From positions 18,413 through 82,412 of the IMG/VR virus record IMGVR_UViG_3300034102_002786: a stretch of 64,000 nt of DNA; one strand, given 5' to 3'. Below are positions 28,935-56,246 of the stretch, one piece after another. Source of the DNA: a virus. Taxonomy: Duplodnaviria; Heunggongvirae; Uroviricota; Caudoviricetes. Below the pieces are notes generated by a model. It saw nothing but the letters and a program-made list of their open reading frames with translations. It was not told the DNA's origin and did no database searches. Positions within the stretch are counted from its first letter, which is position 1, and each line of letters begins with the position of its first letter. A program made the position numbers and the translations under genes.

Positions 28935-28983
28935 TTGATTATCAATGAGTTAGCAAAAATACAGCTAACTCATTGATTTTCAA
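28935..28983. promoter_or_regulatory. two operator-like sites (TTGAttaTCAA at 28935-28945 and TTGAtttTCAA at 28973-28983)
   Basis: Same TTGA-N3-TCAA motif; the sites flank a 14-bp perfect hairpin. Confidence 0.4.
28941..28980 (+). terminator. hairpin terminator candidate after the vWA gene
   Basis: ATCAATGAGTTAGC-aaaaataca-GCTAACTCATTGAT is a perfect 14-bp stem followed by TTTT. Confidence 0.45.
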
Positions 28984-29014
28984 CCATTTGTAATCTCAAA
29001 AAATAATTAAAAAA

Positions 29015-29055
29015 ACATTTGGTAGTTTCAGGTATTTTTCGTATCTTTACGAAGT
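29015..29055 (+). promoter_or_regulatory. Bacteroidetes-type promoter (-33 TTTG at 29018-29021, -7 TATCTTTA at 29042-29049)
   Basis: aaacaTTTGgtagtttcaggtatttttcgTATCTTTAcgaag is nearly identical to the tRNA-array promoters. Confidence 0.55.
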
Positions 29056-29105: not shown

Positions 29106-30311
29106 ATGGCAAAGTCTAATGTAGACAAAGTGAGTAAAGTAATCTTCAAAGTAGTGAAGGTAGGCTCACATTTCAAACTAGCAAATACTGCTGGTAAAAT
29201 TGTAGGTACTAACGGAATTAGTACTGGTACTCGTAAGAAAGCTTTCGAAGCTGGTAAAGCACTTCGTAAAGTAGTTGGTAGTGGTGGTAAGATTCAATAC
29301 CGCTTAACCGATATGGCTGAATTTGATAACTTAGTTGCTCCATTGAAAAGCAACGCCGAAGTTAATGTTGAGAAATTGGATAATCATAAAGAGATTACCG
29401 ATTTTATCCATAACGAATCGGTTAAACTTAAACCTGAAGGATTGGTTATTTCAGACCTTAAATGGAAATACCTTATTCGTTCAGCTGTGAGAGCTAAAAA
29501 TATTATGATGACTGGACCTGCTGGTTGTGGTAAGACATTAGCAGCTAAAGCATTAACTAAAGGTTTAAAGAGACCTGATTTCTATTTCAACTTAGGTGCT
29601 ACGCAAGATGCTAGAGCAACGTTGATTGGTAACACGCACTTTGATTCTAAGAAAGGTACTTTCTTCGCTGAATCCGCTTTCGTAAAAGCAATCACCACTC
29701 CAAACGCTGTTATCCTATTGGATGAGTTGAGTAGAGCACATCCTGATGCTTGGAATATTCTTATGACAGTGTTGGATTTGGGACAACGTTACCTTCGTTT
29801 GGATGAAGCTGTTGATTCACCAATTGTAAATGTGGCTGAAGGTGTTACCTTTATCGCTACGGCTAACATTGGTGGTGAATATACATCAACGCGTGTTCTT
29901 GACCGTGCTATCTTAGACCGTTTCACTACAATTGAAATGGATGTATTGAACGATACGCAGGAGTTTGACTTGTTAAAGTATATGTATCCAGCTGTTAATG
30001 ATGATGATTTGAAAGCAGTAGCTGAAATCGCTCACCATACTAGAGAAATAGCTAAAGGTGGTGATGGTAAATTATCAACTGGTGTATCAACTCGTGCTAG
30101 TGTAGAAACTGCTGGACTTATCTATGATGGATTCAGTTTGTTCGAAGCAGCTGAGATTAGTATGTTCCCCTTCTTCAGTAATGATGGTGGTGTGGATAGT
30201 GAACGTACCTATGTTAAGCAGTTGGTACAAAAGTATGTAAAGGATGAGAAAGCTGATGAGGCTTTATTCACCGAACCAACCGAAGATGATAGTGAAAAAA
30301 TTGTTTGGTAA
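29106..30311 (+). CDS. CobS-like AAA+ ATPase (MoxR/CbbQ/AAA_5 family)
   Basis: Walker A MMTGPAGCGKT and Walker B VILLDELSRAHPD...NILMTVLD. Confidence 0.75.
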   Translation: MAKSNVDKVSKVIFKVVKVGSHFKLANTAGKIVGTNGISTGTRKKAFEAGKALRKVVGSGGKIQYRLTDMAEFDNLVAPLKSNAEVNVEKLDNHKEITDFIHNESVKLKPEGLVISDLKWKYLIRSAVRAKNIMMTGPAGCGKTLAAKALTKGLKRPDFYFNLGATQDARATLIGNTHFDSKKGTFFAESAFVKAITTPNAVILLDELSRAHPDAWNILMTVLDLGQRYLRLDEAVDSPIVNVAEGVTFIATANIGGEYTSTRVLDRAILDRFTTIEMDVLNDTQEFDLLKYMYPAVNDDDLKAVAEIAHHTREIAKGGDGKLSTGVSTRASVETAGLIYDGFSLFEAAEISMFPFFSNDGGVDSERTYVKQLVQKYVKDEKADEALFTEPTEDDSEKIVW

Positions 30312-44569: not shown

Positions 44570-44845
44570 ATGATGGAAACAATCGGATTTATTGGTAGCA
44601 TACTTTTAGCAGTATGTGGTATTCCAGAAGTGGTTCGCACTATTAAAGATAACAAATGTCATTTAGGATGGAACTTTTTGTTACTTTGGTTTGGTGGCGA
44701 ACTTTTCATGCTTACATATATTATACCAATGAAAGACCTTCCATTATTATTAAACTATGTATTCAATACGGCATTAGTAGGAATAATGCTATTTTATAAA
44801 ATCAAAAACACAAAATATGTTACCATTAAAAGAAGCAATCGCTGA
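44570..44845 (+). CDS. membrane protein
   Basis: 91-aa ORF with 2-3 TM helices. Confidence 0.45.
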   Translation: MMETIGFIGSILLAVCGIPEVVRTIKDNKCHLGWNFLLLWFGGELFMLTYIIPMKDLPLLLNYVFNTALVGIMLFYKIKNTKYVTIKRSNR

Positions 44846-45362
44846 GAAGCATTCGTTAGCAGAAAAAATGACATTCAATCAAAGAATGTTAAACGGAGAA
44901 TTGAGTAAAGAAGAATATATCGCATATCTTTGCCAACAATTAGGAATATTCGATGCGATAGAAAGAGGTAGAACACTACCACACCCATCCCTTAACAGAG
45001 TTGATAATATCTTAAAAGATATTCAAGAACTGATGGAAATTGGCGATGATGCTGGGTTGGAAATTGACCTTTTAGATTCAACTGAAAAATATTTTTTATA
45101 TATTAAATCATTATCGGATGAAGAAATACTTCCGCACATTTATCTTAACTACTTAGCCCTAATGTTTGGTGGGCAGATGATGAAATCAAAAGTTCCTGGT
45201 AATGGTAAGATGTATGAGTTCGATGGTGATATGAGGGAAGTTGCTGGAAGTATTAGAGCAATTCAAAAAGATGAATGGGCAGACGAAGCAAACAAAGCAT
45301 TAGATTACAATATAGCTATTTTTGATGAACTACAACGAATATCTGAATCAGCTGGCGAATAA
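44817..45362 (+). CDS. heme oxygenase
   Basis: LKEAIAEKHSLAEKMTFNQRMLNGELSKEEYIAYLCQQLGIFDAIE follows the heme-oxygenase proximal-helix pattern (K.H...E....L.G.....Y...L.Q.Y.I..A.E). Confidence 0.7.
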   Translation: MLPLKEAIAEKHSLAEKMTFNQRMLNGELSKEEYIAYLCQQLGIFDAIERGRTLPHPSLNRVDNILKDIQELMEIGDDAGLEIDLLDSTEKYFLYIKSLSDEEILPHIYLNYLALMFGGQMMKSKVPGNGKMYEFDGDMREVAGSIRAIQKDEWADEANKALDYNIAIFDELQRISESAGE

Positions 45363-45954
45363 GTTTCAACAAATGGTGTTAGCTGCACCTAAAGTTGGGA
45401 CTGTATTTACCGAAGACTTTGGATGGGTTAATCATCGTTACGAATCTTCCACATTTCGTTTGGCCCATATCGAAAGGTATTGGGATAAGAATATAGAAGT
45501 ACTTCACTTTACTACCTTTCCACACAAATGGAGTCCAGAACCTATATTTGGGTTTGATGTAATTTGTACTGAAAACAAAGTAACAGGATGTTATATGGAT
45601 TTGAGTCCGGGTCTGAAGGATTACCCATTTGATAATGGTATTGATTTTAAGGATAGGAAACCATTACCTGAATGGGCTACTGTATTTTCTGATAAGTTTA
45701 TAATGTTGAAGCCGGAAAGTAATGAAGAATTTATTCGTTTTTGTGATTGGGTGTTGGACAGATATGATTGGTATCTTAATTCTATCTTATGGATGGAAAA
45801 GAAAGTAGAAGATATTAATAGTGTAATAGAGAAGCAGAATATTTATTGTCAAATACAGGCAACAAACCCTCGAACATTTTCAGCATTAAAAGCTAAGATT
45901 GGTGAGGAAAAAGCTCGTTATTTTATGGAAAACATACTATTCCCAAAAATATGA
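45322..45954 (+). CDS. ferredoxin-dependent bilin reductase (PcyA/PebS/PcyX-like)
   Basis: LAHIERYWDKNIEVLHFTTFPHKWSPEPIFGFDVICTENKVTGCYMDLSP matches the FDBR core (AHVERY..K.DVLH.V.FP....LPIFG.D.V......S.AI.DLSP). Overlaps the heme-oxygenase gene by 41 nt; alternative start ATG at 45373. Confidence 0.7.
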   Translation: MMNYNEYLNQLANKFQQMVLAAPKVGTVFTEDFGWVNHRYESSTFRLAHIERYWDKNIEVLHFTTFPHKWSPEPIFGFDVICTENKVTGCYMDLSPGLKDYPFDNGIDFKDRKPLPEWATVFSDKFIMLKPESNEEFIRFCDWVLDRYDWYLNSILWMEKKVEDINSVIEKQNIYCQIQATNPRTFSALKAKIGEEKARYFMENILFPKI

Positions 45955-46316
45955 CACCAAAAAAAATATACATAGATTTTGGAACTCCCATAGAAGAATG
46001 GGCTGATAATAACAAAGGAGTAATTATGGATTCCATATATTCCAATGTATTTGATTTTGTAGAATCCGAAGAAGATGATAGAGTAGTACTTCAGGTATCA
46101 CCAAAGATACCACAAAGAAGAAGACCGGCGGCACTTAAAGAACCACCTATTAATGTGGATTTTATCATATCGAAGGACGATATTGATTTAACACTACGAA
46201 AGATGATGGAATATTATATTGAGGTGGAAGAATATGAAAGGTGTGCTGAAATCCAAAAGCTACAAAACGGAGAAAAAAAACCCAAAAAGAAAAGTAAAAA
46301 AGAGGCTTACTGGTAA
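45951..46316 (+). CDS. hypothetical protein
   Basis: 121-aa ORF with a Lys-rich C-terminus. Confidence 0.45.
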   Translation: MTPKKIYIDFGTPIEEWADNNKGVIMDSIYSNVFDFVESEEDDRVVLQVSPKIPQRRRPAALKEPPINVDFIISKDDIDLTLRKMMEYYIEVEEYERCAEIQKLQNGEKKPKKKSKKEAYW

Positions 46317-46343
46317 AAACTATATTTATACAAAAAATAAATA

Positions 46344-46799
46344 ATGTTCGTACCAAATCATTTGCATCTATTGGTAAAGGGATACTTAAAATCCCCACCA
46401 CAAACAGAAAAAGTGTTAAACATATGGTTTACACAATTGGTTGACAACGTAGGAATGAAAGTTGTTGCAGGTCCTACATCGGTTTATGTTAATGAACCGG
46501 GCAACGAAGGGATAACGGGAACGGTAACATTAGCAACATCGCATGCATCTATTCACGTTTGGGATAACGAAAATCCGGCTATGTTTCAATTTGATATTTA
46601 TAGTTGTTCGGATTTTAAACCAAAAGATGTACTAAACCATATAGATGATTGGTTTGGATTAACTGAAGCACATTGGCAGTTTATAGATAGAAACGGTAAA
46701 GATTTTAAAGTGATTGATTCGGGTCATTTTAAAAAGAGTGTTGTAAGAAAAATTACCGATGTATTTAAAACGAAAAAAGTAGTTGATGAACTTGGATGA
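46344..46799 (+). CDS. speD: S-adenosylmethionine decarboxylase proenzyme (SpeH/class 1 AdoMetDC)
   Basis: GPTSVYVNEPGNEGITGTVTLATSHASIHVWDNE carries the pyruvoyl-forming Ser region typical of small AdoMetDC. Confidence 0.7.
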   Translation: MFVPNHLHLLVKGYLKSPPQTEKVLNIWFTQLVDNVGMKVVAGPTSVYVNEPGNEGITGTVTLATSHASIHVWDNENPAMFQFDIYSCSDFKPKDVLNHIDDWFGLTEAHWQFIDRNGKDFKVIDSGHFKKSVVRKITDVFKTKKVVDELG

Positions 46800-47430
46800 T
46801 ATTAAATATGGTAATACAACTAAAGAACAGGAGCAGAAGGTAAGAGAAGACCGTTCCGGTATCATCAAAGACTGCGAAGAAACTGGTATCATCAAAGATG
46901 TATTAGAAAATCATCCATTTCCCAAAAATTCATCCGAAGAAACTAAAAACGAGTTAGATTATTTGTTAAGAATTACAAAAGAAGCATCCGAAGAAGATTT
47001 AAAATTTTGTAAGTTAATAGAAACCAATCACTATGATTTCTTTGTTATAGTTGGAAAAAAGCTGGGATTAGATGTTAGCAAGGAAGAAATACTAAAATGG
47101 GTTGGTGATGTGGACCCGATTCTATTTTACCTTAAAGATAAGTTCAATAGACCAAGGCCATATCAATTGGCAAAGGAACTAAACTTACCACTTTATCCAA
47201 TAACCGCATCTGATGCAAATTCAGCAGCATATCCATCTGGTCATACTTTAGATTTTTTAGTAATATTATATCATTTTGGAAAAATGAAGCCGGAAATTGC
47301 GGATGAAGTAGATGACTTTTATCATCAAATAAAAAGAGTAAGAGAATTGAGTGGATTACATTATCCATCTGATAGAAAAGTATCTGAATATTTATTTAAG
47401 CAGTTAGTTAAGAATAAATTAATAAAATAA
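46783..47430 (+). CDS. PAP2-superfamily phosphatase
   Basis: KDKFNRPRP, PSGH and SGLHYPSD are PAP2 motifs 1-3. Confidence 0.7.
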   Translation: MMNLDDIKYGNTTKEQEQKVREDRSGIIKDCEETGIIKDVLENHPFPKNSSEETKNELDYLLRITKEASEEDLKFCKLIETNHYDFFVIVGKKLGLDVSKEEILKWVGDVDPILFYLKDKFNRPRPYQLAKELNLPLYPITASDANSAAYPSGHTLDFLVILYHFGKMKPEIADEVDDFYHQIKRVRELSGLHYPSDRKVSEYLFKQLVKNKLIK

Positions 47431-47469
47431 GTTACAAACCTTAACGAAAGAAACCATATATGGACGACG

Positions 47470-47718
47470 GTGACAGTGAAAAAAACAATCAAAAAATTAG
47501 AAAACAAAGAGAGCAGATTGATGCTCTATCGCGATACATCATTGATGCTGGCAATGTTTTTTCTACCTTTGGGGTACGATGCACTGTTCAAGCTATTGAT
47601 GGATATAACAGGCTCATATTGGGGAGCAGACGTGGTCTTTTACTCAATTTCAGGCTGCTTTTGGTTGGCATATATATTGTTTACCAAACGTTTAAATAAA
47701 TTTGGAAAATCCGAATAA
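47470..47718 (+). CDS. small membrane protein
   Basis: 82-aa ORF; an alternative-frame ORF at 47460..47699 also exists. Confidence 0.35.
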   Translation: MTVKKTIKKLENKESRLMLYRDTSLMLAMFFLPLGYDALFKLLMDITGSYWGADVVFYSISGCFWLAYILFTKRLNKFGKSE

Positions 47719-47735
47719 ATTTAGTATCTTTGTAT
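47701..47735 (+). promoter_or_regulatory. Bacteroidetes-type promoter (-33 TTTG at 47701-47704, -7 TATCTTTG at 47725-47732)
   Basis: TTTGgaaaatccgaataaatttagTATCTTTGtatag. Confidence 0.55.
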
Positions 47736-47737
47736 AG

Positions 47738-47971
47738 ATGGAAATCAACGAAAACATATTAAAACTTAAACTTAAAGAATCCGAATTAAAGGAAGAATTA
47801 GCAAGTGCTGAAGCTCACATACCTGTAAATAATATGGGTAAATGGGCTCGTCAAACTAAAATTGACCGTATTTCGGAAAGACTAAAGAAGGTGCAAGAAA
47901 AAATCCATTTTCACGATTCTATATATTTATCTAATGAAATATACAATGAATGGAAAAAGGATGTAAAGTAG
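47738..47971 (+). CDS. hypothetical coiled-coil protein
   Basis: 77-aa ORF. Confidence 0.4.
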   Translation: MEINENILKLKLKESELKEELASAEAHIPVNNMGKWARQTKIDRISERLKKVQEKIHFHDSIYLSNEIYNEWKKDVK

Positions 47972-48636
47972 TACGTTTGGATGAAGCTTCTTTAGGTAGA
48001 GTTCTCCAACACATTCAGGGCAAAAAGAGTGTGAAAAATTGGGGTATGCTTACCGCATATAGATATTCTAATACTCCAAACCAAAATAAAAAACTTAATA
48101 AAGAATTAGAAGCTGAATTAAGGCAGATGGGGCATGGATTCTTTAAAGTAGAAGGTCATTGGGTTGAGTGCCAGGATGGTAACCTATCATACGAAGATTG
48201 TCCGAAGAACTTACTAAAAGATGCTATCGAAGAATCACTTTTCGTTCCAAATATTTCAGCAAAAGATATTCACAACTTAGGTAAAAAATACGGACAGGAT
48301 GCGGTTATCTTTGGTGGTGAACAAACTAAAGGAAACGCAACTCTTATATTCAAAGATGGTAAGGTAGAAAATATTGGTAAGTTTTCTCCTGATAAAATAC
48401 AACAAGCTTATTCAAAACTAAAAGGCGGAAAAACTTTTGTATTTAAGCCAGAAGAACCTAAAGTTTCTGATGATGAAACAAAGTTAATGCATTTATTACC
48501 AAAAGATATTTTAGACAAAACTATTAAAAATCCAGCAACAGGAAATATGATTAAAGTTAAATCAGCTTTAGCATACGATGAGAAACACCCTGTATTTAAG
48601 GCAGCTCAAACATTTGTTGCACAATCTAAAAAATAA
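47950..48636 (+). CDS. hypothetical protein
   Basis: 228-aa ORF. Confidence 0.5.
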   Translation: MEKGCKVVRLDEASLGRVLQHIQGKKSVKNWGMLTAYRYSNTPNQNKKLNKELEAELRQMGHGFFKVEGHWVECQDGNLSYEDCPKNLLKDAIEESLFVPNISAKDIHNLGKKYGQDAVIFGGEQTKGNATLIFKDGKVENIGKFSPDKIQQAYSKLKGGKTFVFKPEEPKVSDDETKLMHLLPKDILDKTIKNPATGNMIKVKSALAYDEKHPVFKAAQTFVAQSKK

Positions 48637-48637
48637 A

Positions 48638-48672
48638 TTTGGCGGATTCGTATCTTTTTAGTATATTTGTAT
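48638..48672 (+). promoter_or_regulatory. Bacteroidetes-type promoter (-7 TATATTTG at 48662-48669)
   Basis: aaTTTGgcggattcgtatctttttagTATATTTGtat. Confidence 0.45.
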
Positions 48673-48748
48673 ATACTTATTAATTCTATGTGTATAACTC
48701 ATTGATTCTGAGGCATTTATGAAAGTTATCCACATTTAGAAAAAAAGA

Positions 48749-48782
48749 TTTGGTAGTTTGAAAAATTATTTGTATCTTTACA
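48749..48782 (+). promoter_or_regulatory. tandem promoter copy P1 (-33 TTTG at 48749-48752, -7 TATCTTTA at 48773-48780), immediately upstream of the first tRNA
   Basis: aaaaaagaTTTGgtagtttgaaaaattatttgTATCTTTAcaaagtt. Confidence 0.6.
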
Positions 48783-48806
48783 AAGTTCTTTTAAATAATA
48801 TAATAT

Positions 48807-48878
48807 TGTGGGGTAGAGCAGAGGTAGCTCGCAAGGCTCATAACCTTGAGGCCGTTGGTTCGAATCCTTCCCCCGCAA
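48807..48878 (+). tRNA. tRNA-Met-like (anticodon CAT), copy 1; the T-stem has two T-T mismatches
   Basis: Acceptor TGTGGGG/CCCCGCA, D-stem GAGC/GCTC, anticodon stem CAAGG/CCTTG with loop CTCATAA, T-loop TTCGAAT. The acceptor is identical to the tRNA at 52002. Confidence 0.55.
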
Positions 48879-48887
48879 CAAAAAAGA

Positions 48888-48921
48888 TTTGGTAGTTTGA
48901 AAAAATTATCGTATCTTTACA
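48888..48921 (+). promoter_or_regulatory. tandem promoter copy P2
   Basis: aaaaagaTTTGgtagtttgaaaaaattatcgTATCTTTAcaaagtt. Confidence 0.55.
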
Positions 48922-49040
48922 AAGTTAAGGTTGAAGCCATCAACTAATAAAACCGATTGAGTGACTCGTTAAACATTAGTTTCGTTAGAGTGAAAAGAAA
49001 CTACAAAGCCGGATACTTTAACTAACTAATTAAAAAAAGA

Positions 49041-49074
49041 TTTGGTAGTTTGAAAAAATTATCGTATCTTTACT
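49041..49074 (+). promoter_or_regulatory. tandem promoter copy P3
   Basis: aaaaagaTTTGgtagtttgaaaaaattatcgTATCTTTActaagatt. Confidence 0.55.
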
Positions 49075-49140
49075 AAGATTCAAAAATAAAGTAGTTGATT
49101 GGTTCGCCAGAAAACAAAATTGAGAATCTTTAAAAAAAGT

Positions 49141-49174
49141 TTTGGAAAATTGAAAAAGATTTCGTATCTTTACT
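49141..49174 (+). promoter_or_regulatory. tandem promoter copy P4
   Basis: TTTGgaaaattgaaaaagatttcgTATCTTTActctgttc. Confidence 0.5.
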
Positions 49175-50368
49175 CTGTTCTTAAAACAAAAGTTCTTTAA
49201 CATATTGAAGATACTACACATAGTAACCTTGTGTTACATAGTGTACGATGGCCGCCTATGGTCATTAAATAAACTACGAAAGTAGGATAAAGTGAATCAT
49301 TTGGTTAAATGATTTGCGGTTTGTAATCCGTTTAGGGTTATGAGCTTGAGTAGGCAAGTGAGATATTACTTGGGCTTTGTATGTGAGGGTAACACTGTAG
49401 CAGAAGAGTTTGGGTAACTGGGGGTATGTAGAACCTTCGGTTGAGTTCGGAAGAACAATAAGAATAACTCATAGAATTATTGTAAGACATAGAAAGCTAA
49501 TCCCTTTTTACTATTGCGTGATTCAATACCAAAGTGGTCTTGATAATCAAGCTATCCGAAAGGACGTAAGATAAGACTGTGTACGCGTGGTGGCGTTACT
49601 ATCCTTTAATGTGGGACACCAATCCCTATTAATGAAGATGACTTGAAGTATGGCGTTGAGATAACGCATTGGGTAGTTTAGTATTCTCTCGTTCAAAAGA
49701 TGGGGGAGCTGGTGATGGACCGCTACCTGAATCAATCTACAAACCAAAACTTTATATTTTCAATTTAGGTTTGAAAAACTATAATTAAACATAAAGCATA
49801 AGTGTCCATCAGTTGTGACCGAAAGGTGCATACATAGTTGGGAGTTGTTCCCAGCCATAAACGCCCGCAAGGTGGTTATGATTTTTACGAAAAGCTTATA
49901 GACCCGCAAGGTTGAATCAGTTCGGCAGGATTGAATAAGGGGAGTAGTAAGAGAGTAAGTTACAACTTTAAGAGTGGTTATACTTTACTAACCTGCATTG
50001 ACTGGTACATCTCAAAAGGGTGTGGAAACGAAAGGAATCAAAATAATCTTTCTAAAGCTAGTTATCCCAACGTGTATTCTCAACGTTTTTACTTTCTCAA
50101 TGGTTGTATATTGGTTCGATTCCAATAGAGAGAGCAAATTCATCCTGTAAGATGAATTATCGTGGTCTTTCTTTTACATAATGTTCACCTATTGAGAATA
50201 AAGAGTTATGTAGACCTAAAAGAACAAAACTAATGTAGACAGTATAGGCTGGTTTTTGTAAGTTTGACTGTTAATCCCTTATCAAATAGGGCTAAACGAA
50301 AATGGTTGACACGATAGATACCTGTGGTTAGGCAAGCGCTCGGAAAGTTCCCACCTTACAAAAAAACT

Positions 50369-50440
50369 TTCCATTTATGCGGTGTAAGTGTTACGGTAGC
50401 ACATTTCACATTCCAGTGAAAAGGAGAGGTTCAATTCCTT
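50369..50440 (+). ncRNA. tRNA-like element (pseudo-tRNA) with a 6-nt anticodon loop
   Basis: Acceptor TGCGGTG/CACCGCT (6 of 7 bp), T-arm AGAGG-TTCAATT-CCTTT, anticodon stem TTCAC/GTGAA with loop ATTCCA. Confidence 0.2.
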
Positions 50441-50505
50441 TCACCGCTCTACTAACAACTGAAAAGTTGTTCGTTTCATATCTTAATTTTTATTACAACT
50501 TAGAT

Positions 50506-50530
50506 GGGGGTGCTTCGGCATCCCCTATTT
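50506..50530 (+). terminator. rho-independent terminator with a UUCG tetraloop
   Basis: GGGGGTGC-TTCG-GCATCCCC is an 8-bp stem followed by TATTT. Confidence 0.55.
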
Positions 50531-50776
50531 AAGCCTGATGAAACTAACAACAATTCGGAAAAAATTATTTATATATACTTATTAATATAACAAAGTGATG
50601 AAAACTTTAACACTACATACAAATTGTTCGCAACCTACATTGAGAAATGAGTGGGCAGGCATTCGTATGTTTAGTACGATTAGTAATCCGGCAAACTTAG
50701 GCAAGGTGGATTATATTTGTACACAGTTAGAGGAAGCATCAGGTTGGTAATAGATTATACTTAAAACAACATAGAA

Positions 50777-50816
50777 AGACCTCTAACTGAATCAAATCGG
50801 TTAGAGGTTTTTTCGT
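50777..50816 (+). terminator. rho-independent terminator
   Basis: AGACCTCTAAC-(12-nt loop)-GTTAGAGGTTT followed by TTTTT; ends 6 nt before tRNA-Asn. Confidence 0.6.
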
Positions 50817-50821
50817 TTTAA

Positions 50822-50893
50822 GCTCCTTTGGCGCAGCGGTAGCGCAGCAGACTGTTAATCTGTTGGTCCTTGGTTCGAATCCAAGAGGGAGCG
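50822..50893 (+). tRNA. tRNA-Asn (GTT)
   Basis: Acceptor GCTCCTT/AGGGAGC, D GCGC/GCGC, anticodon loop CTGTTAA, T-arm CTTGG-TTCGAAT-CCAAG. Confidence 0.85.
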
Positions 50894-50926
50894 CAGTATA
50901 TGTTCTTTGACATATTGGGATAAGTT

Positions 50927-51001
50927 GGAAGTTTAGCTCAGCTGGTTTAGAGCATCACGTTTACACCGTGAGGGTCATAGGTTCGAATCCTGTAACTTCC
51001 A
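50927..51001 (+). tRNA. tRNA-Val (TAC)
   Basis: Acceptor GGAAGTT/AACTTCC, D GCTC/GAGC, anticodon arm TCACG-TTTACAC-CGTGA, T-loop TTCGAAT. Confidence 0.85.
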
Positions 51002-51106
51002 CAACATGTTCCATACACATTCCTACAATCTCTCAGTTGAAAGCTGTTGTAGGATTGAGTGAGTAGCACGATAGGGCTATCAAATGTGAGTTATATGGAA
51101 CGCCAT

Positions 51107-51188
51107 TGGGGTATCGCATAGTGGCAATTGCGGCTGACTGTAAATCAGCTCTCATTTGAGTTCGGCGGTTCGAGTCCGTCTACCCCAA
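51107..51188 (+). tRNA. tRNA-Tyr (GTA), class II with a long variable arm
   Basis: Acceptor TGGGGTA/TACCCCA, anticodon arm GCTGA-CTGTAAA-TCAGC, 14-nt variable arm, T-arm GGCGG-TTCGAGT-CCGTC. Confidence 0.8.
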
Positions 51189-51192
51189 CACC

Positions 51193-51265
51193 GGTGATGA
51201 AGCTAACTAGGTAGAAGCGAAAGACTGAAAATCTTTAGGAAGTGGTTCGATACCACTCATTACCA
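51193..51265 (+). tRNA. tRNA-Phe (GAA)
   Basis: Acceptor GGTGATG/CATTACC, anticodon arm AAAGA-CTGAAAA-TCTTT, T-arm AGTGG-TTCGATA-CCACT. Confidence 0.8.
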
Positions 51266-51287
51266 CTTAACAATTAAAAAAACAATT

Positions 51288-51497
51288 ATGGCAGATTTTA
51301 ATCATGGAGTTGGTACATTAATAAAAGAGTTGGTGACACCAAAAGGAAAAATTGAAATGGGTAGTAAAGGAATAGTAACTGCGTATCTACCAGAAGATGG
51401 TAAGTTCGCAGTAGATTTTGGAAATGGACAATGGATAACATTTGATAAAATATCATTGGACGAATATTGTAAAATAGAATTAGAAGATAACAATTAA
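51288..51497 (+). CDS. hypothetical protein embedded in the tRNA array
   Basis: 69-aa ORF between tRNA-Phe and tRNA-Lys. Confidence 0.4.
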   Translation: MADFNHGVGTLIKELVTPKGKIEMGSKGIVTAYLPEDGKFAVDFGNGQWITFDKISLDEYCKIELEDNN

Positions 51498-51537
51498 AAA
51501 CAAATACTATGGAAAGTGACAAGTATGACAAAAGTCA

Positions 51538-51611
51538 GACCTCTTAGCTCAGTTGGTTAGAGCACTATACTTTTAATATAGGAGTCAATGGTTCGAATCC
51601 ATTAGGGGTCA
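51538..51611 (+). tRNA. tRNA-Lys (TTT)
   Basis: Acceptor GACCTCT/AGGGGTC, D GCTC/GAGC, anticodon arm CTATA-CTTTTAA-TATAG, T-arm AATGG-TTCGAAT-CCATT. Confidence 0.85.
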
Positions 51612-51686
51612 CAAAAAGTTCCGAACTTAATATTGAGTTAAAATAATGATGTACACATTATACGATAGGATGGAAACCTATCACAT

Positions 51687-51760
51687 TGGAGTATAGCTCA
51701 GTTGGTTAGAGCGCTAATCTGATACGTTAGATGCCGCAGGTTCGAATCCCGCTACTCCAA
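51687..51760 (+). tRNA. tRNA-Ile (GAT)
   Basis: Acceptor TGGAGTA/TACTCCA, D GCTC/GAGC, anticodon arm CTAAT-CTGATAC-GTTAG, T-loop TTCGAAT (one A-C mismatch in the T-stem). Confidence 0.75.
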
Positions 51761-51765
51761 CACAC

Positions 51766-51836
51766 ATGGGTATAGTGAAATGGTATCATGCCGGTCTCCA
51801 AAACCGTTGTTGTGGGTTCGAATCCTACTACCCGTG
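51766..51836 (+). tRNA. tRNA-Trp (CCA)
   Basis: Acceptor ATGGGTA/TACCCGT, D GTGA/TCAT, anticodon loop CTCCAAA, T-arm GTGGG-TTCGAAT-CCTAC. Confidence 0.7.
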
Positions 51837-51841
51837 CAATT

Positions 51842-51914
51842 GGCTCTTTAGTGAAATGGATTATCACACAACGCTACGGACGTTGGGTTAAAGGTTCGAA
51901 TCCTTTAGGGGCTA
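51842..51914 (+). tRNA. tRNA-Arg (ACG)
   Basis: Acceptor GGCTCTT/AGGGGCT (three G-U pairs), D GTGA/TCAC, anticodon arm CAACG-CTACGGA-CGTTG, T-arm AAAGG-TTCGAAT-CCTTT. Confidence 0.7.
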
Positions 51915-51922
51915 CATAATAA

Positions 51923-51993
51923 GGCGAGTTGTTAGAGTGGTGATATGAAGTTCTGCAAAAACTTTTACACAGGTTCGAATCCTGTACTCGCCT
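51923..51993 (+). tRNA. tRNA-Cys (GCA)
   Basis: Acceptor GGCGAGT/ACTCGCC, anticodon arm AAGTT-CTGCAAA-AACTT, T-arm ACAGG-TTCGAAT-CCTGT; the D-arm pairs weakly. Confidence 0.75.
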
Positions 51994-52001
51994 CTTGATA
52001 T

Positions 52002-52073
52002 TGTGGGGAGATTAGGTAATCCGTTTGGTCTCATAAGCCAGATATTCAGGTTCAATTCCTGGCCCCGCAACCA
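52002..52073 (+). tRNA. tRNA-Met-like (CAT), copy 2, with a reduced D-arm and an encoded 3' CCA
   Basis: Acceptor TGTGGGG/CCCCGCA, anticodon loop CTCATAA, T-arm TCAGG-TTCAATT-CCTGG, ends A-CCA. Candidate initiator or Ile-lysidine tRNA. Confidence 0.55.
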
Positions 52074-52076
52074 AAT

Positions 52077-52151
52077 GGTGTTTGAAGCATTAAGGTGATG
52101 CGCTAGTTTGTGGAGCTAGATAAGACGGTTCGATACCGTCCTTACACCCCA
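52077..52151 (+). tRNA. tRNA-His (GTG) with the extra 5' G(-1) and an encoded CCA
   Basis: G-1 plus acceptor GTGTTTG/CTTACAC (two T-T mismatches), D GCAT/ATGC, anticodon arm CTAGT-TTGTGGA-GCTAG, T-arm GACGG-TTCGATA-CCGTC, discriminator C. Confidence 0.65.
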
Positions 52152-52153
52152 AC

Positions 52154-52243
52154 GGAGAGTTGCCTGAGTGGCCGAAAGGGCCGGTTTGCTAAACCGTTGT
52201 ACGGAGTTAATCTGTACCGAGAGTTCGAATCTCTCACTCTCCG
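52154..52243 (+). tRNA. tRNA-Ser (GCT), class II
   Basis: Acceptor GGAGAGT/ACTCTCC, anticodon loop TTGCTAA, long variable arm TGTACGGAGTTAATCTGTACC, T-arm GAGAG-TTCGAAT-CTCTC. Confidence 0.8.
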
Positions 52244-52252
52244 CATAAATAA

Positions 52253-52286
52253 TTTGGATAATTGAAAAATTATTCGTATATTTGTA
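52253..52286 (+). promoter_or_regulatory. Bacteroidetes-type promoter inside the array (-33 TTTG at 52253-52256, -7 TATATTTG at 52277-52284)
   Basis: aaTTTGgataattgaaaaattattcgTATATTTGtataac. Confidence 0.55.
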
Positions 52287-52306
52287 TAACTTAAAACATA
52301 AAAGAG

Positions 52307-52735
52307 ATGAACGTAAAACAGGCTTTAAAAGCAAAGAACAAACTTACCACTCAAATCAAAGCGTTATATGAAATCGCTAAGAATCATAACTCAATTGAGG
52401 AAGGTAACCTGCGTAGATATTCCGTAAATGGAGTATTGAATGAAGCAGAAGAATTGACCAAAGAGTTGGTTGATTTAAAAACTAAAATCCATCAGGCTAA
52501 CCAACCTGTATATGGTAAGATTTTCCTAATGGCAGAGCTAAAAGGAAAGGTAAAGCAACTTAAAGGAATGAGTTGTGAAGAAGGTAAAGTAACCGAAAGA
52601 TTTGGTTCAATCCAATCGGTGAAAGAAGTAGAAATTAATATCGCTCAAAAAGACCAAATGATAAAAGATTTGGAAAATCAAATTGAGGGATTGCAGGATG
52701 AGTTGGATGTGTATAACGCAACTACAACCATCTAA
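52307..52735 (+). CDS. hypothetical coiled-coil protein embedded in the tRNA array
   Basis: 142-aa ORF downstream of the internal promoter. Confidence 0.5.
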   Translation: MNVKQALKAKNKLTTQIKALYEIAKNHNSIEEGNLRRYSVNGVLNEAEELTKELVDLKTKIHQANQPVYGKIFLMAELKGKVKQLKGMSCEEGKVTERFGSIQSVKEVEINIAQKDQMIKDLENQIEGLQDELDVYNATTTI

Positions 52736-52947
52736 TAAAAAATTGGGAAGATGTGAGTGATGAAATTTGTTTTTATTATTATCTTGCAAATCTGACGCAT
52801 TGCCAATCAGTATTAAACGATGATGATTAAATAATTTCAACTCTCAAATCTTGATAGAGTCAACATTCGCGCAATGTCAACACACTCAAAACTCTTATTA
52901 ATTGGTAATCATATTAACTTATTGATTCACCACATCAACCCATCTAT

Positions 52948-53019
52948 GCTCGGTTCGTCTAACGGTTAGGACACCACCCTTTCACGGTGGTGATACGGGT
53001 TCGATTCCCGTACCGAGTA
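52948..53019 (+). tRNA. tRNA-Glu (TTC)
   Basis: Acceptor GCTCGGT/ACCGAGT, D GTCT/GGAC, anticodon arm CCACC-CTTTCAC-GGTGG, T-arm ACGGG-TTCGATT-CCCGT; resembles bacterial tRNA-Glu throughout. Confidence 0.85.
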
Positions 53020-53113
53020 CAATAGCATACATCACAATCAGTCAAGCCGTATTTAGCTGTTAGTGTATGTTAGATAAGAGAAAGAAACGGCTGGGACATT
53101 CTCTTATCAAAAC

Positions 53114-53185
53114 GCTTCCAAAGCATTGCAGGCGATGCGCTTGACTTGTAATCAAGATAATTCGGTTCGATTCCGGATGGAAGCT
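53114..53185 (+). tRNA. tRNA-Thr (TGT)
   Basis: Acceptor GCTTCCA/TGGAAGC, D GCAT/ATGC, anticodon arm CTTGA-CTTGTAA-TCAAG, T-arm TTCGG-TTCGATT-CCGGA. Confidence 0.85.
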
Positions 53186-53260
53186 CAAACTAATTCATTG
53201 AGGTGTTTGTCAACCAGTGCATGACATGGATGGTGCGGATAAAGGTGAATTAGTGATTAA

Positions 53261-53334
53261 GGATTGTTGGTGAAGTTGGTTATCATGCCACCCTGTCACG
53301 GTGGAGTTCACGGGTTCGAGTCCCGTACAATCCG
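53261..53334 (+). tRNA. tRNA-Asp (GTC)
   Basis: Acceptor GGATTGT/ACAATCC, D GTGA/TCAT, anticodon arm CCACC-CTGTCAC-GGTGG, T-arm ACGGG-TTCGAGT-CCCGT. Confidence 0.85.
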
Positions 53335-53582
53335 CAAAAGGTATAATTAGATTGTATATGCAATTAGCTCGGCAATCTTTAACACCTGCAGATGTGAGGT
53401 GATTATACTTTTAAGTTGTTTCATACACTTAACACACCTAGTAACAAGGTAAGGCACATAGAGTTACATAGAGGCATGGAGTAATTACCCAACGCCACAT
53501 TCGGACTACAAATGTAGATTAGGTTCAGACGTTGTAGAGAAAGAGATGTTAAGAGTAAACTTGCAAGTTGAAACAACTGTTT

Positions 53583-53659
53583 GGTTCGGTAGCTCAGTTG
53601 GATAGAGCAACAGCCTTCTAAGCTGTGGGTCAAAGGTTCGAATCCTTTCCGAATCACCA
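53583..53659 (+). tRNA. tRNA-Arg (TCT) with an encoded CCA
   Basis: Acceptor GGTTCGG/CCGAATC, D GCTC/GAGC, anticodon arm ACAGC-CTTCTAA-GCTGT, T-arm AAAGG-TTCGAAT-CCTTT, then A-CCA. Confidence 0.85.
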
Positions 53660-53674
53660 AATAAAAAGTAAGAC

Positions 53675-54121
53675 ATGAAAAATGTAACTTTAGTAACATG
53701 CTTCTTTTTGTTATTCATTCCGCATAATATAAATAACTCTGAAAGGAGTGAGGAAGAAGTTGTGGATGAAATAATAGAAAAGAAAAAGTTACCTTATGAT
53801 TTAGTGACCGTAACAACGTACACTGTATCTAAAGGTGAAACCGATTCAACTCCATTAATTACCGCAAGTGGTTACAAATTGGATAGCCTTAATCCAAAGA
53901 AACAAAAGGTAATAGCAATAAGCAGAGACCTGAAACGAAAGTATAAGTTTGGACAAAAAGTAAGAGTGAAGGGTGCTGGTAAATTAGATGGTGTATATAC
54001 CGTCAGAGATTTAATGGCGAAGAGATGGACAAAAAAGATTGATATATTAATTAACCCAGATGATAAAGGAACAAAAATCAGAAAGGTTAAGTTATATAAT
54101 GTAGCAAACATAGGGAATTAG
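53675..54121 (+). CDS. secreted 3D-domain protein (MltA/YocH-like cell-wall-binding or lytic fold)
   Basis: N-terminal signal-like segment, then VTVTTYTVSKGETDSTPLITASGYKL...VRVKGAGKLDGVYTVRD, which follows the 3D-domain pattern (TAYT..E.D..P.TASG). Its 3' end overlaps tRNA-Pro by 10 nt. Confidence 0.6.
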   Translation: MKNVTLVTCFFLLFIPHNINNSERSEEEVVDEIIEKKKLPYDLVTVTTYTVSKGETDSTPLITASGYKLDSLNPKKQKVIAISRDLKRKYKFGQKVRVKGAGKLDGVYTVRDLMAKRWTKKIDILINPDDKGTKIRKVKLYNVANIGN

Positions 54122-54185
54122 CGTAGCCCGGTATCGCGCTTGGTTTGGGACCAAGAGGTCGTCAGTTCGAATCTGGCATTCCCTA
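54112..54185 (+). tRNA. tRNA-Pro (TGG)
   Basis: Acceptor AGGGAAT/ATTCCCT, anticodon arm CTTGG-TTTGGGA-CCAAG, T-arm GTCAG-TTCGAAT-CTGGC. Confidence 0.8.
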
Positions 54186-54218
54186 CGAAAAGATTTGGAT
54201 AAGTGAAATATAAAATAA

Positions 54219-54446
54219 ATGGCAAAGTATATTAAAACCGCATTCATACGAGATTTAGAAATCAAATTGCAAAATGAAGAAATTTCATATGGTAAAGCGA
54301 TTGAACTTATTCAAGAAGAAGTTATTGAAAATTATAAAAAAGATAATACCTTATTGAAAAAAATAAAAAGATTATTAGGTGAGGTTTGGCTAGGATTTAA
54401 GATAGCTGAAGGAAACCGAAATAAATCTCAATGGGGTAAATTTTAA
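54219..54446 (+). CDS. hypothetical protein embedded in the tRNA array
   Basis: 75-aa ORF. Confidence 0.4.
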   Translation: MAKYIKTAFIRDLEIKLQNEEISYGKAIELIQEEVIENYKKDNTLLKKIKRLLGEVWLGFKIAEGNRNKSQWGKF

Positions 54447-54447
54447 A

Positions 54448-54482
54448 TTAGGATAATTAAAATATTATTCGTATCTTTGTAT
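54448..54482 (+). promoter_or_regulatory. promoter inside the array (-7 TATCTTTG at 54472-54479; degenerate -33)
   Basis: ggataattaaaatattattcgTATCTTTGtatag. Confidence 0.45.
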
Positions 54483-54504
54483 AGTTATTTGAAATAGTAT
54501 CGCC

Positions 54505-54590
54505 GCCGAGGTGATGGAATGGTAGACATGAAAGACTTAAAATCTTTTGAGCAGAAATAGCTCGTGTGGGTTCGACTCCCATCCTCGGTA
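54505..54590 (+). tRNA. tRNA-Leu (TAA), class II
   Basis: Acceptor GCCGAGG/CCTCGGT, D-arm TG-ATGG-AATGGTAG-ACAT, anticodon arm AAAGA-CTTAAAA-TCTTT, 18-nt variable arm, T-arm GTGGG-TTCGACT-CCCAT. Confidence 0.8.
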
Positions 54591-54600
54591 CGTTCAATTA

Positions 54601-54674
54601 GGGGAAGTAGCTCAGTTGGCTAGAGCATCTGCCTTGCACGCAGAGGGTCATGGGTTCGACTCCCTTCTTCTCCA
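54601..54674 (+). tRNA. tRNA-Ala (TGC) with the G3:U70 identity pair
   Basis: Acceptor GGGGAAG/CTTCTCC (G3-T70 wobble), D GCTC/GAGC, anticodon arm TCTGC-CTTGCAC-GCAGA, T-loop TTCGACT. Confidence 0.8.
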
Positions 54675-54678
54675 CATC

Positions 54679-54752
54679 GGACCTATAGCTCATTCGGTTA
54701 GAGCAACTGACTCATAATCAGTAGGTGCTTGGTTCGATTCCAAGTGGGTCCA
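54679..54752 (+). tRNA. tRNA-Met (CAT), copy 3, canonical elongator-like
   Basis: Acceptor GGACCTA/TGGGTCC, D GCTC/GAGC, anticodon arm ACTGA-CTCATAA-TCAGT, T-arm CTTGG-TTCGATT-CCAAG. Confidence 0.85.
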
Positions 54753-54760
54753 CAAAAATT

Positions 54761-54833
54761 GCGGAAGTAGCTCATTCGGTAGAGCACAACCTTGCCAAGG
54801 TTGGGGTGGCCAGTTCGAGCCTGGTCTTCCGCT
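54761..54833 (+). tRNA. tRNA-Gly (GCC)
   Basis: Acceptor GCGGAAG/CTTCCGC, D GCTC/GAGC, anticodon arm CAACC-TTGCCAA-GGTTG, T-arm GCCAG-TTCGAGC-CTGGT. Confidence 0.85.
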
Positions 54834-54893
54834 CAAAAGGACTTTAATGGTTGAAGTACAAAACCGAAGTAGGTTAGTCCCACCTACACAAAA

Positions 54894-54966
54894 GCGAGAG
54901 TAGCTCATTTGGTAGAGCGGTAGCCTTCCAAGCTTCAGGTGGCCAGTTCGAGCCTGGTCTCTCGCT
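54894..54966 (+). tRNA. tRNA-Gly (TCC)
   Basis: Acceptor GCGAGAG/CTCTCGC, D GCTC/GAGC, anticodon loop CTTCCAA (one mismatch in the stem), T-arm GCCAG-TTCGAGC-CTGGT. Confidence 0.75.
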
Positions 54967-55025
54967 CAAGTGGGCCTGTTAGTATTAGGCCGCAAGAAGA
55001 ATAGATGTTTTTCAATTACTACAAA

Positions 55026-55053
55026 CTCAAGCATTAATTTGCTTGGGTTTTAT
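55026..55053 (+). terminator. hairpin plus T-tract (weak terminator or attenuator) before tRNA-Gln
   Basis: CTCAAGCA-ttaatt-TGCTTGGG followed by TTTTATT. Confidence 0.35.
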
Positions 55054-55125
55054 TGCCCGATGATGTAATGGTTAGCATCACAGATTTTGATTCTGTTCGT
55101 ATTGGTTCGAGTCCAGTTCGGGTAA
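55054..55125 (+). tRNA. tRNA-Gln (TTG)
   Basis: Acceptor TGCCCGA/TCGGGTA, anticodon arm ACAGA-TTTTGAT-TCTGT, T-arm ATTGG-TTCGAGT-CCAGT. The track's TTG-start ORF at 55053 overlaps this tRNA and is rejected. Confidence 0.75.
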
Positions 55126-55136
55126 CAAAAAATATT

Positions 55137-55598
55137 ATGAAATATAAAATTTCATTTGAAGATATAAATAAAATAAAAGAGGTTTACAAAAATGGTAATG
55201 ATACTAGATATGTACCTAGCAATTCAGATGATATAAATAGTCCATATTTCATAAAAAGTGAAAGATTTTTTTGTGATTTAAAAAATGATGAATTACTAGA
55301 TATTATAAAAAATAATATACCAATAGATGATGTTAATGAATGTATAACATCAATTCATTATATAAATTACAAAAAAGGTGAAGGGGCAAAAGAACATAGT
55401 GATATTGGTGCATCTAATAAAACTTTTATTTTCATTCTAAACGATGAATTTGAAGGTGGTGAATTTCATTTGGATAAAAATTATGTTCCATTAGTGAAAG
55501 GAGATATAATAGCTTTTAATGGAAATCAGCTACACTTAGTTAAACCAATTAAAAAAGGAAATAGAGAGGTTTTAGTTGTCTTTCTAAAAAATAAATAA
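55137..55598 (+). CDS. 2OG-Fe(II) oxygenase superfamily protein (prolyl-4-hydroxylase/PKHD-like)
   Basis: HSD...H facial triad candidates (EHSDIG, then LHLVKP) and a C-terminal RE.LVVF strand. Start set at the ATG after tRNA-Gln. Confidence 0.65.
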   Translation: MKYKISFEDINKIKEVYKNGNDTRYVPSNSDDINSPYFIKSERFFCDLKNDELLDIIKNNIPIDDVNECITSIHYINYKKGEGAKEHSDIGASNKTFIFILNDEFEGGEFHLDKNYVPLVKGDIIAFNGNQLHLVKPIKKGNREVLVVFLKNK

Positions 55599-55625
55599 AA
55601 ATTTTAATAATTAAAAACAAATGTT

Positions 55626-55889
55626 ATGGGATTATTTTGGACGTATTATGTAATTTGTTTCATCTATTGTCTTGTAATGTCAATACGAAAATGGAATAGA
55701 GATGTAAGAGCAGGTGGTTTAGGTATATCACCTGGTTTAGATTCTTTGGCTCTATTGATTATGTGTTGGATATTAGCACCAGTAGATATATTCTTAACTT
55801 GGGTTAGGGTATATAAAGAAGCAGAAGAAGCAAGAAGAAATCAAAGTACTTTAGATACTAAAGACTTTAAAGATGAAAAAGTATTCTAA
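55626..55889 (+). CDS. small membrane protein
   Basis: 87-aa ORF with two TM helices. Confidence 0.45.
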   Translation: MGLFWTYYVICFIYCLVMSIRKWNRDVRAGGLGISPGLDSLALLIMCWILAPVDIFLTWVRVYKEAEEARRNQSTLDTKDFKDEKVF

Positions 55890-55906
55890 TTATTAGAGTA
55901 CTAAAC

Positions 55907-55991
55907 AGAGAGTTGGCCGAGTGGTTGATGGCGGCAGTCTTGAAAACTGTTTTACTGAAAGGTAACGGGGGTTCGAATCCCTCACTCTCTG
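55907..55991 (+). tRNA. tRNA-Ser (TGA), class II
   Basis: Acceptor AGAGAGT/ACTCTCT, 3-bp D-stem GCC/GGC, anticodon arm GCAGT-CTTGAAA-ACTGT, 16-nt variable arm, T-arm GGGGG-TTCGAAT-CCCTC. Confidence 0.8.
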
Positions 55992-55996
55992 CACAT

Positions 55997-56143
55997 TGTA
56001 AGGTGTTGGAATTGGCAGACAAGCCCTCCTGTCTCGGGGGTGGTGAGCACGAAATAGGTTAGTAATATGGGGTAGACCACCATCCTGCAGGAATGTGTTA
56101 CTAACTGAATCGCACTATGGTGGTTCGAATCCATCTCTTACAG
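55997..56143 (+). tRNA. 147-nt tRNA-like gene (Leu-like D-arm) carrying a ~78-nt insertion between the anticodon-arm region and the T-arm; anticodon unresolved; possibly intron-containing or disrupted
   Basis: Acceptor TGTAAGG/TCTTACA (7 bp), D-arm TG-TTGG-AATTGGCAG-ACAA is almost identical to the adjacent tRNA-Leu genes, candidate anticodon arm CCCTC-CTGTCTC-GGGGG, T-arm GGTGG-TTCGAAT-CCATC. The insert 56041-56118 contains a 9-bp hairpin GGTTAGTAA...TTACTAACT and the palindrome TCCTGCAGGA. Confidence 0.4.
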
Positions 56144-56148
56144 CAAAG

Positions 56149-56230
56149 GCCCCGTTGATGGAATTGGTAGACATGCCAGACTTAGGATCTGGTGCTGAGA
56201 AGCATAAGAGTTCGAGTCTCTTATGGGGCA
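56149..56230 (+). tRNA. tRNA-Leu (TAG), class II
   Basis: Acceptor GCCCCGT/ATGGGGC, D-arm TG-ATGG-AATTGGTAG-ACAT, anticodon arm CCAGA-CTTAGGA-TCTGG, 13-nt variable arm, T-arm AAGAG-TTCGAGT-CTCTT. Confidence 0.8.
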
Positions 56231-56246
56231 CTCAAAAACAAAATTT

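Follow-up and report, generated by a model that had tools for sequence, protein, structure and literature searches.

Five predicted host-type promoters in a row, each heading a non-coding RNA gene, at the GOLLD locus of a probable Bacteroidota phage

The 64,000-nucleotide stretch of DNA analysed here (the window) carries five promoters of apparent host sigma-A type, P0 to P4 (48638-49173), which all point in the same direction and each seem to head a small non-coding RNA gene of their own, with GOLLD as the product of the last. We consider this arrangement, together with the read-through, processing and Nus mechanism proposed below, to be quite likely, and extend the same degree of confidence to the joint proposition that the source is a large phage of a Bacteroidota host. 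The promoters themselves look like ordinary Bacteroidota promoters for the housekeeping sigma factor. Of greater interest are the RNA behind P2, here called unit A, and the resemblance of the GOLLD locus to an rRNA operon, with its tandem promoters, A-tracts, boxA-like leader and tRNA-like ends. More tentatively, with doubt slightly outweighing belief, we propose that unit A represents an undescribed phage-specific structured RNA class with its own promoter, forming with the boxA-like leaders an rRNA-operon-like, Nus-protected unit of non-coding RNAs directed against or towards the translation machinery of the host. That the window is a segment of a phage genome is indicated by its single gene direction, its GC content of 32%, its 27 tRNA genes and its phage-type PHROG matches.

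A repeat search of the window returns a direct-repeat family with copies at 48738-48798, 48877-48937, 49030-49090 and 49130-49190, spaced 139, 153 and 100 nt from start to start. The family is real and not a product of chance: TTTG-N20-TATCTTTAC, with at most one mismatch, is matched six times in the window where 0.34 matches are expected, and 0 of 100 shuffles reach six. The matches at 48749, 48888, 49041, 49141 and 29018 are exact, while the sixth is a weaker site. The sequence-only reading, an earlier note on this DNA, had described four near-identical tandem units and a remote copy at 29015, and these are indeed present, the latter as the exact match at 29018; the 34 nt it gave for the unit fall short of the roughly 43 nt that are conserved, made up of an A-tract with TTTGG, a 19-nt spacer and then CGTATCTTTAC. 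It had missed P0, a fifth and more divergent member of the family brought out by a looser pattern and by matrix scans, which lies at 48638-48669, directly past the stop of ORF 47950-48636.

The reading of these units as promoters also stands up well. About 20 nt is the proper distance between the -33 TTTG and the -7 box in the Bacteroidota sigma-A consensus, and exactly 20 nt separate the two in each of P0-P4. The -7 box has been described as TAnnTTTG, at -12 to -5, in Flavobacterium psychrophilum (PMC9723704); it reads TATATTTG in P0 and TATCTTTA in P1-P4, the latter agreeing at seven of eight positions and replacing the final G by A. The very high expression earlier suggested as a possibility for the stack is not borne out. 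With A in place of the final consensus G, P1-P4 are no nearer the consensus than other promoters of the window. A position matrix built from 12 window sites and run over both strands at a threshold of at least 12 bits gives 17 matches on the + strand and none on the - strand, the best shuffled score being 3.2; all long ORFs of the window lie on the + strand as well, so that 17 of 17 sites are on the coding strand. The high scores of P0 (42.8 bits), P2 (52.5), P3 (51.9) and P4 (45.9) are circular, the matrix having been built partly from these same sites. Outside the stack most matrix sites lie a few tens of nucleotides before an ORF start or a tRNA, as do those at 52253 (before ORF 52307) and 54448 (before tRNA-Leu, 54505), both on the + strand; the remote copy (29018-29049, + strand, 51.4 bits) is 56 nt upstream of an AAA-ATPase gene (29106-30311, PHROGs). 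A scan with the sigma-70 consensus, which is unsuited to this host, found 45 sites against 36 expected, and showed no enrichment.

A Bacteroidota host, earlier guessed to be a member of the Flavobacteriia, fits the scarcity of Shine-Dalgarno sequences, whose core precedes 3 of 59 ORFs against a background of 9%, as well as the rrn-leader motif discussed below; the regions upstream of the ORFs are A-rich, as in Bacteroidota. Among the genes directly upstream of the RNA locus (44817-48636, mapped from the gene calls of one related contig) are those for a heme oxygenase, a ferredoxin-dependent bilin reductase, an S-adenosylmethionine decarboxylase and a SAM-lyase-like protein. As a set, such auxiliary genes are unusual in an apparent Bacteroidota phage.

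All features of the locus described here are on the + strand, and transcription starts are predicted at five bases past the -7 box. P0 (48638-48669, TTTGG...TATATTTG) has its predicted start at about 48674 and a positional orthologue in L074/L077, the L-numbers denoting related phage loci or contigs that were compared with the window. It is followed by a non-coding unit of about 70 nt (48674-48737) that contains a hairpin and is conserved in L074 and L069. In eight other related loci a tmRNA with its own promoter is found just upstream of tRNA-Met; the window has no tmRNA, and P0 occupies the corresponding position. A palindrome, AACTCATTGA-N3-TCAATGAGTT (TCATTGA-N3-TCAATGA), recurs beside promoters, past gene ends and after unit A, in the window at 28941-28990 and 48694-48712 (in degenerate form in the P0 unit) and also in L058, L069 and L074. 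No U-tract follows it, and it might serve as an operator, form a hairpin for RNA processing or mark a site of recombination.

P1 (48738-48781) comprises an A-tract, the -33 TTTG at 48749-48752 and the -7 box TATCTTTA at 48773-48780, with a predicted start at G48785. This base is also the first of a boxA-like element, GTTCTTTTAAATA (48785-48797), which ends 10 nt before a tRNA-Met gene with a CAT anticodon (48807-48879; ARAGORN, and 59.9 bits with the Rfam tRNA model), so that P1 does precede tRNA-Met in position, as had been claimed. In the window the first pair of this tRNA is U1-A72 and its anticodon stem is AAGG/CCTT. The orthologues at the same position in relatives show C1xA72 and GGG/CCC, hallmarks of an initiator, from which the copy in the window may have drifted away. 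Two further tRNAs with CAT anticodons are located at 52002 and 54679.

P2 (48877-48920; -33 at 48888-48891, -7 at 48912-48919) is predicted to start at G48924, which is the first base of unit A (48924-49022) and lies one base before its outer stem. Unit A folds into an outer stem pairing 48925-48931 with 49015-49021, an inner hairpin with the invariant loop CUAAUAAAACCGA, a variable hairpin and the invariant segment AAAGCCGGAUA. Its core, TTGAAGCCANCANCTAATAAAACCGA, is found in 53 contigs of uncultivated phages in IMG/VR. Among the 33 distinct sequences aligned, six pairs of the 7-bp outer stem show compensatory changes, and in the 5-bp inner stem both variable pairs switch among A-U, U-A and G-C/C-G with zero mismatches, bringing the total to eight pairs; the inner helix was missed by RNAalifold, proposed by eye and then confirmed by pair counting. 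Paired cells make up 98.9% of the alignment at these positions, sliding the partners by 1-3 columns lowers this to 33-37%, and the covariation score is reached by 0 of 500 shuffles. The G-U pairs fit the + strand. A covariance model of unit A has a single match in the window (82.3 bits) and recovers four further loci that the exact core pattern does not match.

About 40 invariant unpaired nucleotides thus accompany two covarying helices, a pattern typical of ligand-binding, protein-binding or catalytic RNAs. In single-sequence folding neither unit A (z-score -0.5) nor unit E (described below; -1.0) exceeds shuffled sequence in stability, and the segments downstream of P0, P2, P3 and P4, with values from -0.5 to -1.0, give no evidence for or against a structure. 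No match to either unit was found in Rfam 15, permissive filters included, the hits being at chance level only (E>1 and at most 21 bits, against gathering thresholds of at least 45); unit A was found in none of 185,579 species genomes and none of 50,697 phage genomes deposited in GenBank, and literature searches with its sequence strings returned unrelated papers only. Its neighbours are tmRNA, tRNA-Met and GOLLD, and in some contigs SSB-like and UvsX-like genes, between which it lies with no tRNAs nearby. We regard unit A as a good candidate for a new RNA family.

P3 (49030-49073; -33 at 49041-49044, -7 at 49065-49072) has its predicted start at G49077, within the outer stem of unit E (49077-49128), a 52-nt hairpin RNA of the form GAUUC...UUGAUUGG-loop-CCAG...GAAUC. 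A near-identical unit E stands behind a promoter in five other phages and varies in the apical loop only. Its fold is an imperfect hairpin with a weak z-score. As its sequence is too uniform to show covariation, it may be a hairpin within a leader instead of an RNA in its own right; in L069, where GOLLD has no separate promoter, unit E leads directly into the boxA-like motif and GOLLD. Three more stem-closed units occur in relatives and are absent from the window: unit B (GTGAAAGTAGTAT...GGTATCCTTAACAGG...TTCAC), unit C (GTTGTTCAGAAGTAGGAAG...GAAAATGTTCAAC) and unit D (GTTTGAAACTTATAGGTGATGAAAGATACTCGGTATTCAAAC). They lie between tRNA-Met and GOLLD, mostly behind promoters of their own, in nine related loci, and unit D stands directly 5' of the GOLLD boxA-like motif, the place that boxB takes in rrn leaders.

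The last promoter of the row, P4 (49130-49173; -33 at 49141-49144, -7 at 49165-49172, predicted start G49177), is that of GOLLD. The leader (49177-49204) has GTTCTTAAAA at the predicted start and then the boxA-like GTTCTTTAACATA (49192-49204), followed by TTGAAGA. GOLLD itself occupies 49205-50086, with a 5' domain at about 49205-49668 and the universally conserved 3' domain at 49669-50086. The long block free of ORFs downstream of P4 is identified as GOLLD by Rfam RF02032, with 295.9 bits against a gathering threshold of 150 (E=1e-83) over positions 1-416 of the 416 in the model, and the 5' domain aligns to the GOLLD loci of the huge phages LR756502 and LR745206. Of 33 distinct GOLLD loci, 29 have a promoter scoring at least 20 with the position weight matrix no more than 260 nt ahead of the 5' domain. 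The RNA has been described as a giant phage RNA that assembles as a 14-mer nanocage; it adjoins phage tRNA islands, and GOLLD env-38 is downstream of a tRNA-Met (PMC12286853). The same report makes no mention of a promoter for GOLLD. In the window too the context is rich in tRNAs, with 27 tRNA genes at 48807-56231.

At the other end of GOLLD, a tRNA or tRNA-like element begins some 10 nt or less past the 3' end in all 16 loci examined. In the window this is a minihelix (50092-50136) consisting of an acceptor stem, CTTTCTC/GAGAGAG, which covaries in three relatives, and the T arm GGTTCGATTCC. That a tRNA-like element abuts the RNA suggests that RNase P defines its 3' end. A second odd tRNA-like gene (50378-50449) is called 'tRNA-???' by ARAGORN and scores 34 bits in Rfam.

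The RNA locus has three copies of the boxA-like motif, (A/T)GTTCTTT(T)(A/G)A: one follows P1 (GTTCTTTTAAATA, 48785), one follows P4 (AGTTCTTTAACA, 49191) and one is situated between tRNA-Asn and tRNA-Val (TGTTCTTTGACA, 50901). All three fit the boxA consensus (U/C)G(C/U)UCUUUAACA. The first two fall at +1 of P1 and +16 of P4, counted from the predicted starts, and so between a promoter and a stable-RNA gene; the third (TGTTCTTTGACATA, 50901-50914) is in the same place in three relatives. The boxA of the E. coli rrn operons is UGCUCUUUAACAA (PMC2724277) and that of the Taylorella rRNA spacer is TGTTCTTTAACA (PMC2666751); the leader motif is identical to the latter at 11 of 12 positions and also matches the former. 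The motif is likewise found ahead of tRNA-Met in relatives, and GTTCTT lies 67-95 nt upstream of the anchor of the 5' domain in 30 of 33 distinct GOLLD loci. Among species genomes, GTTCTTT(G/A)A..(A)TTGA(A/G) precedes the 16S gene by 65-95 nt in at least 120 contigs, almost all of them from Bacteroidota, where the evidence is the conservation of the flanking bases only, GTTCTTT having been required by the query. In the 16S leaders listed, the conserved bases past the heptamer (G/A, A, A/C, A, T, A, T, T, G, A/G) are those of the motif at 49192-49213 in the window. The leader motif would thus appear to be a boxA of the rRNA-leader type, able to recruit NusB/NusE. Given its fixed distance to the GOLLD core, it could alternatively contribute to the folding of GOLLD or act as a signal for processing.

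A scan of the + strand called no intrinsic terminators in 48524-54645, and no matrix promoters are found between P4 and 52253, so that polymerases starting at P0-P3 should read on through GOLLD; downstream genes would then probably receive the summed transcription. A 16-bp hairpin followed by TTTTTTCGTTTT at 50775-50818, just before tRNA-Asn, escaped the terminator scan because of its wobble pairs. It is conserved in relatives with an alternative pairing partner and may curb or control the passage of polymerases into the tRNA array, perhaps stopping most transcription before it. The hairpin belongs to an element (50690-50821) that precedes tRNA-Asn in all nine loci compared and comprises TTAGGCAAGGTGGATTATATT.G, GTTAGAGGAtACtGATGTaGGATAA, a variable stretch and the long hairpin with its U-tract, which ends 2-10 nt before the tRNA. 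Positions 50725-50734 agree in sense with the hairpin's 3' arm and covary across phages with both arms (GTTAGAGG/CCTCTAAC/GTTAGGGG against GTTAAGGG/CCCTTAAC/GTTAAGGGG), which is the pattern expected of a putative antiterminator/terminator switch; the element has no match in Rfam. A conserved GGCAAGGTGGATTATATTWG box upstream of tRNA-Asn was considered as a repeated phage-specific promoter and set aside, as it occurs once in the window.

The layout is widely kept. A promoter of this type stands ahead of each of the RNA genes, namely tmRNA, tRNA-Met, unit A, units B/C/D, unit E and GOLLD, in more than 10 related loci, and 23 distinct phage loci have 3-5 stacked promoters 90-300 nt apart. The order of the five promoters in L074/L077 is identical to that of the window, L058 has an extra small ORF module, and in the huge phages LR745206 and LR756502 stacks of two or three likewise precede tRNA-like genes and GOLLD. 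Across phages the stacked promoters correspond as positional orthologues, with an identity within genomes (78%) barely above that between genomes (71%), which points to a stack that is old and maintained rather than recently duplicated and lends no support to concerted evolution as a main effect. Seven contigs with an identical upstream protein (L001-L007) are 100% identical across the locus and hence uninformative; identical contigs come from several metagenomes. Megablast of 24 kb found no close relatives among GenBank phages, the exact promoter string was not found in IMG/VR, and a search for further loci seeded with the upstream gene's protein returned none. The alignment of 48420-48810 with 50500-50830, considered as the two ends of a duplication or insertion, was unconvincing.

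It might be supposed that the promoters serve only to maximise the output of GOLLD, and of the tRNAs, in the manner of the P1-P2 pair of rrn operons, and that what lies between them is spacer without function, a remnant of promoter duplication. P2 and P3 are indeed the same in sequence across about 43 nt, the scan called no terminators from one unit to the next, GOLLD comes last and is the largest product, and in L069 and several other relatives the hairpin unit is just a part of the GOLLD leader. We nevertheless think this explanation unlikely: the segment behind P2 is conserved across 53 contigs, shows compensatory changes in both of its helices and is also found without GOLLD, between the SSB-like and UvsX-like genes, the segment behind P3 is kept nearly base for base in five other phages, and the promoters are, by the identities just given, positional orthologues and not recent duplicates. 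The sequence-only reading had weighed a promoter stack against a set of short promoter-associated RNAs, and each of these holds in part. The unique short segments that it placed after each unit exist behind P2 and P3, where they are conserved RNA genes, and P4 directly abuts the ORF-free block, that is, GOLLD; in the absence of detected terminators transcription should add up towards GOLLD. Beyond P0, that reading had overlooked the identity of GOLLD, the structured RNA after P2 and the boxA-like leaders after P1 and P4. Our reading of the row is that it consists of separate small-RNA genes, which probably act in addition, with no terminators between them, as an additive stack for GOLLD.

Slightly less probable again is the idea that the near-identical promoters are mainly substrates for recombination that shuffle small modules among phages, their activity as promoters being secondary. 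The promoter-early stem-loop (PeSL) cassettes of T4-type phages have been proposed to shuffle gene modules by recombination in this way. The modules between tRNA-Met and GOLLD are mosaic among relatives (units A-E, the small ORF of L058, a 100-nt insert in L074/L077), unit A precedes tRNA-Met in L014, a similar promoter bounds each module, and the palindrome TCATTGA-N3-TCAATGA lies next to some of the promoters; the idea presupposes promoter function, however, and homogenisation within genomes is weak. Least of all do we expect the repeats to be binding sites for a DNA-binding protein, such as the iterons of a replication origin or an operator array, and not promoters, for although five direct repeats in an AT-rich non-coding stretch might suggest it, their spacing of 100-153 nt is irregular and far above that of iterons, the motif stands ahead of a dozen ORFs elsewhere, always along the direction of transcription, and both boxes and their spacing match the host sigma-A consensus.

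Under the favoured reading of a row of small-RNA genes, we infer the following course, from initiation and promoter strength through to Nus binding and processing. Unmodified host RNA polymerase would initiate at each of P0-P4; as the predicted starts coincide with the first base of the boxA-like element (P1) or with an outer stem (P2 and P3), the 5' ends of the RNAs would be primary ends. Polymerases from the upstream promoters would read through, so that GOLLD most of all would receive the summed initiations. The individual RNAs would be freed by processing, with RNase P and RNase Z acting at tRNA-Met and at the tRNA-like helix abutting the 3' end of GOLLD. The boxA-like elements (GUUCUUUAACA and GUUCUUUAACAUAUUGAAGA in the RNA) would recruit host NusB/NusE, as in rRNA operons, and this recruitment would protect the long untranslated transcript from Rho.

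If unit A does represent a new RNA class of this kind, then, taken with the boxA-like leaders, these phages would run an rRNA-operon-like, Nus-protected unit of non-coding RNAs with the translation machinery of the host as its target. For GOLLD the locus probably indicates a route of production, by way of a host-type promoter of its own, an rRNA-style boxA leader and a 3' tRNA-like element, and the promoter, the boxA and the processing site offer handles for the study of its expression.

The locus can be compared with several known systems. With Bacteroidota sigma-A promoters in general P0-P4 share both boxes, the 20-nt gap, the A-rich upstream tract, the restriction to the transcribed strand and the position ahead of genes; they differ in the final A of the -7 box of P1-P4 and in their spacer, GGTAGTTTGAAAAAATTATCG, whose conservation within the genome and among related phages far exceeds that of promoter spacers in general. 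The tRNA cluster of phage T4 includes two small stable RNAs, C and D, which are located among the tRNA genes and co-expressed with them. The predicted small RNAs of the window are likewise encoded among phage tRNA genes; their sequences and the host phylum are unrelated to those of T4, and each has its own promoter. The GOLLD of the window is no different as an RNA from that of RF02032, and the phage setting, the tRNA island and the upstream tRNA-Met are all shared; what the window adds to the GOLLD described earlier (PMC12286853) is a promoter of its own, a boxA-like leader and a 3' tRNA-like element. In the suggested role of RNase P in setting its 3' end at a tRNA-like element GOLLD resembles MALAT1, with its mascRNA.

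A parallel in design is the control region of a bacterial rRNA operon, with its P1-P2 promoter pair, UP element, boxB-boxA leader and Nus antitermination. There too, tandem promoters with A-tracts precede long untranslated stable RNAs, and a sequence matching boxA, here GTTCTTTAACA, follows the start; several relatives have unit D or E as a hairpin just 5' of the boxA-like motif, as boxB is in rrn. In contrast to an rRNA operon, the unit is encoded by a phage, has five promoters rather than two with separate RNA genes in between, and yields, as far as its sequence tells, GOLLD, tRNAs and small RNAs in place of rRNA.
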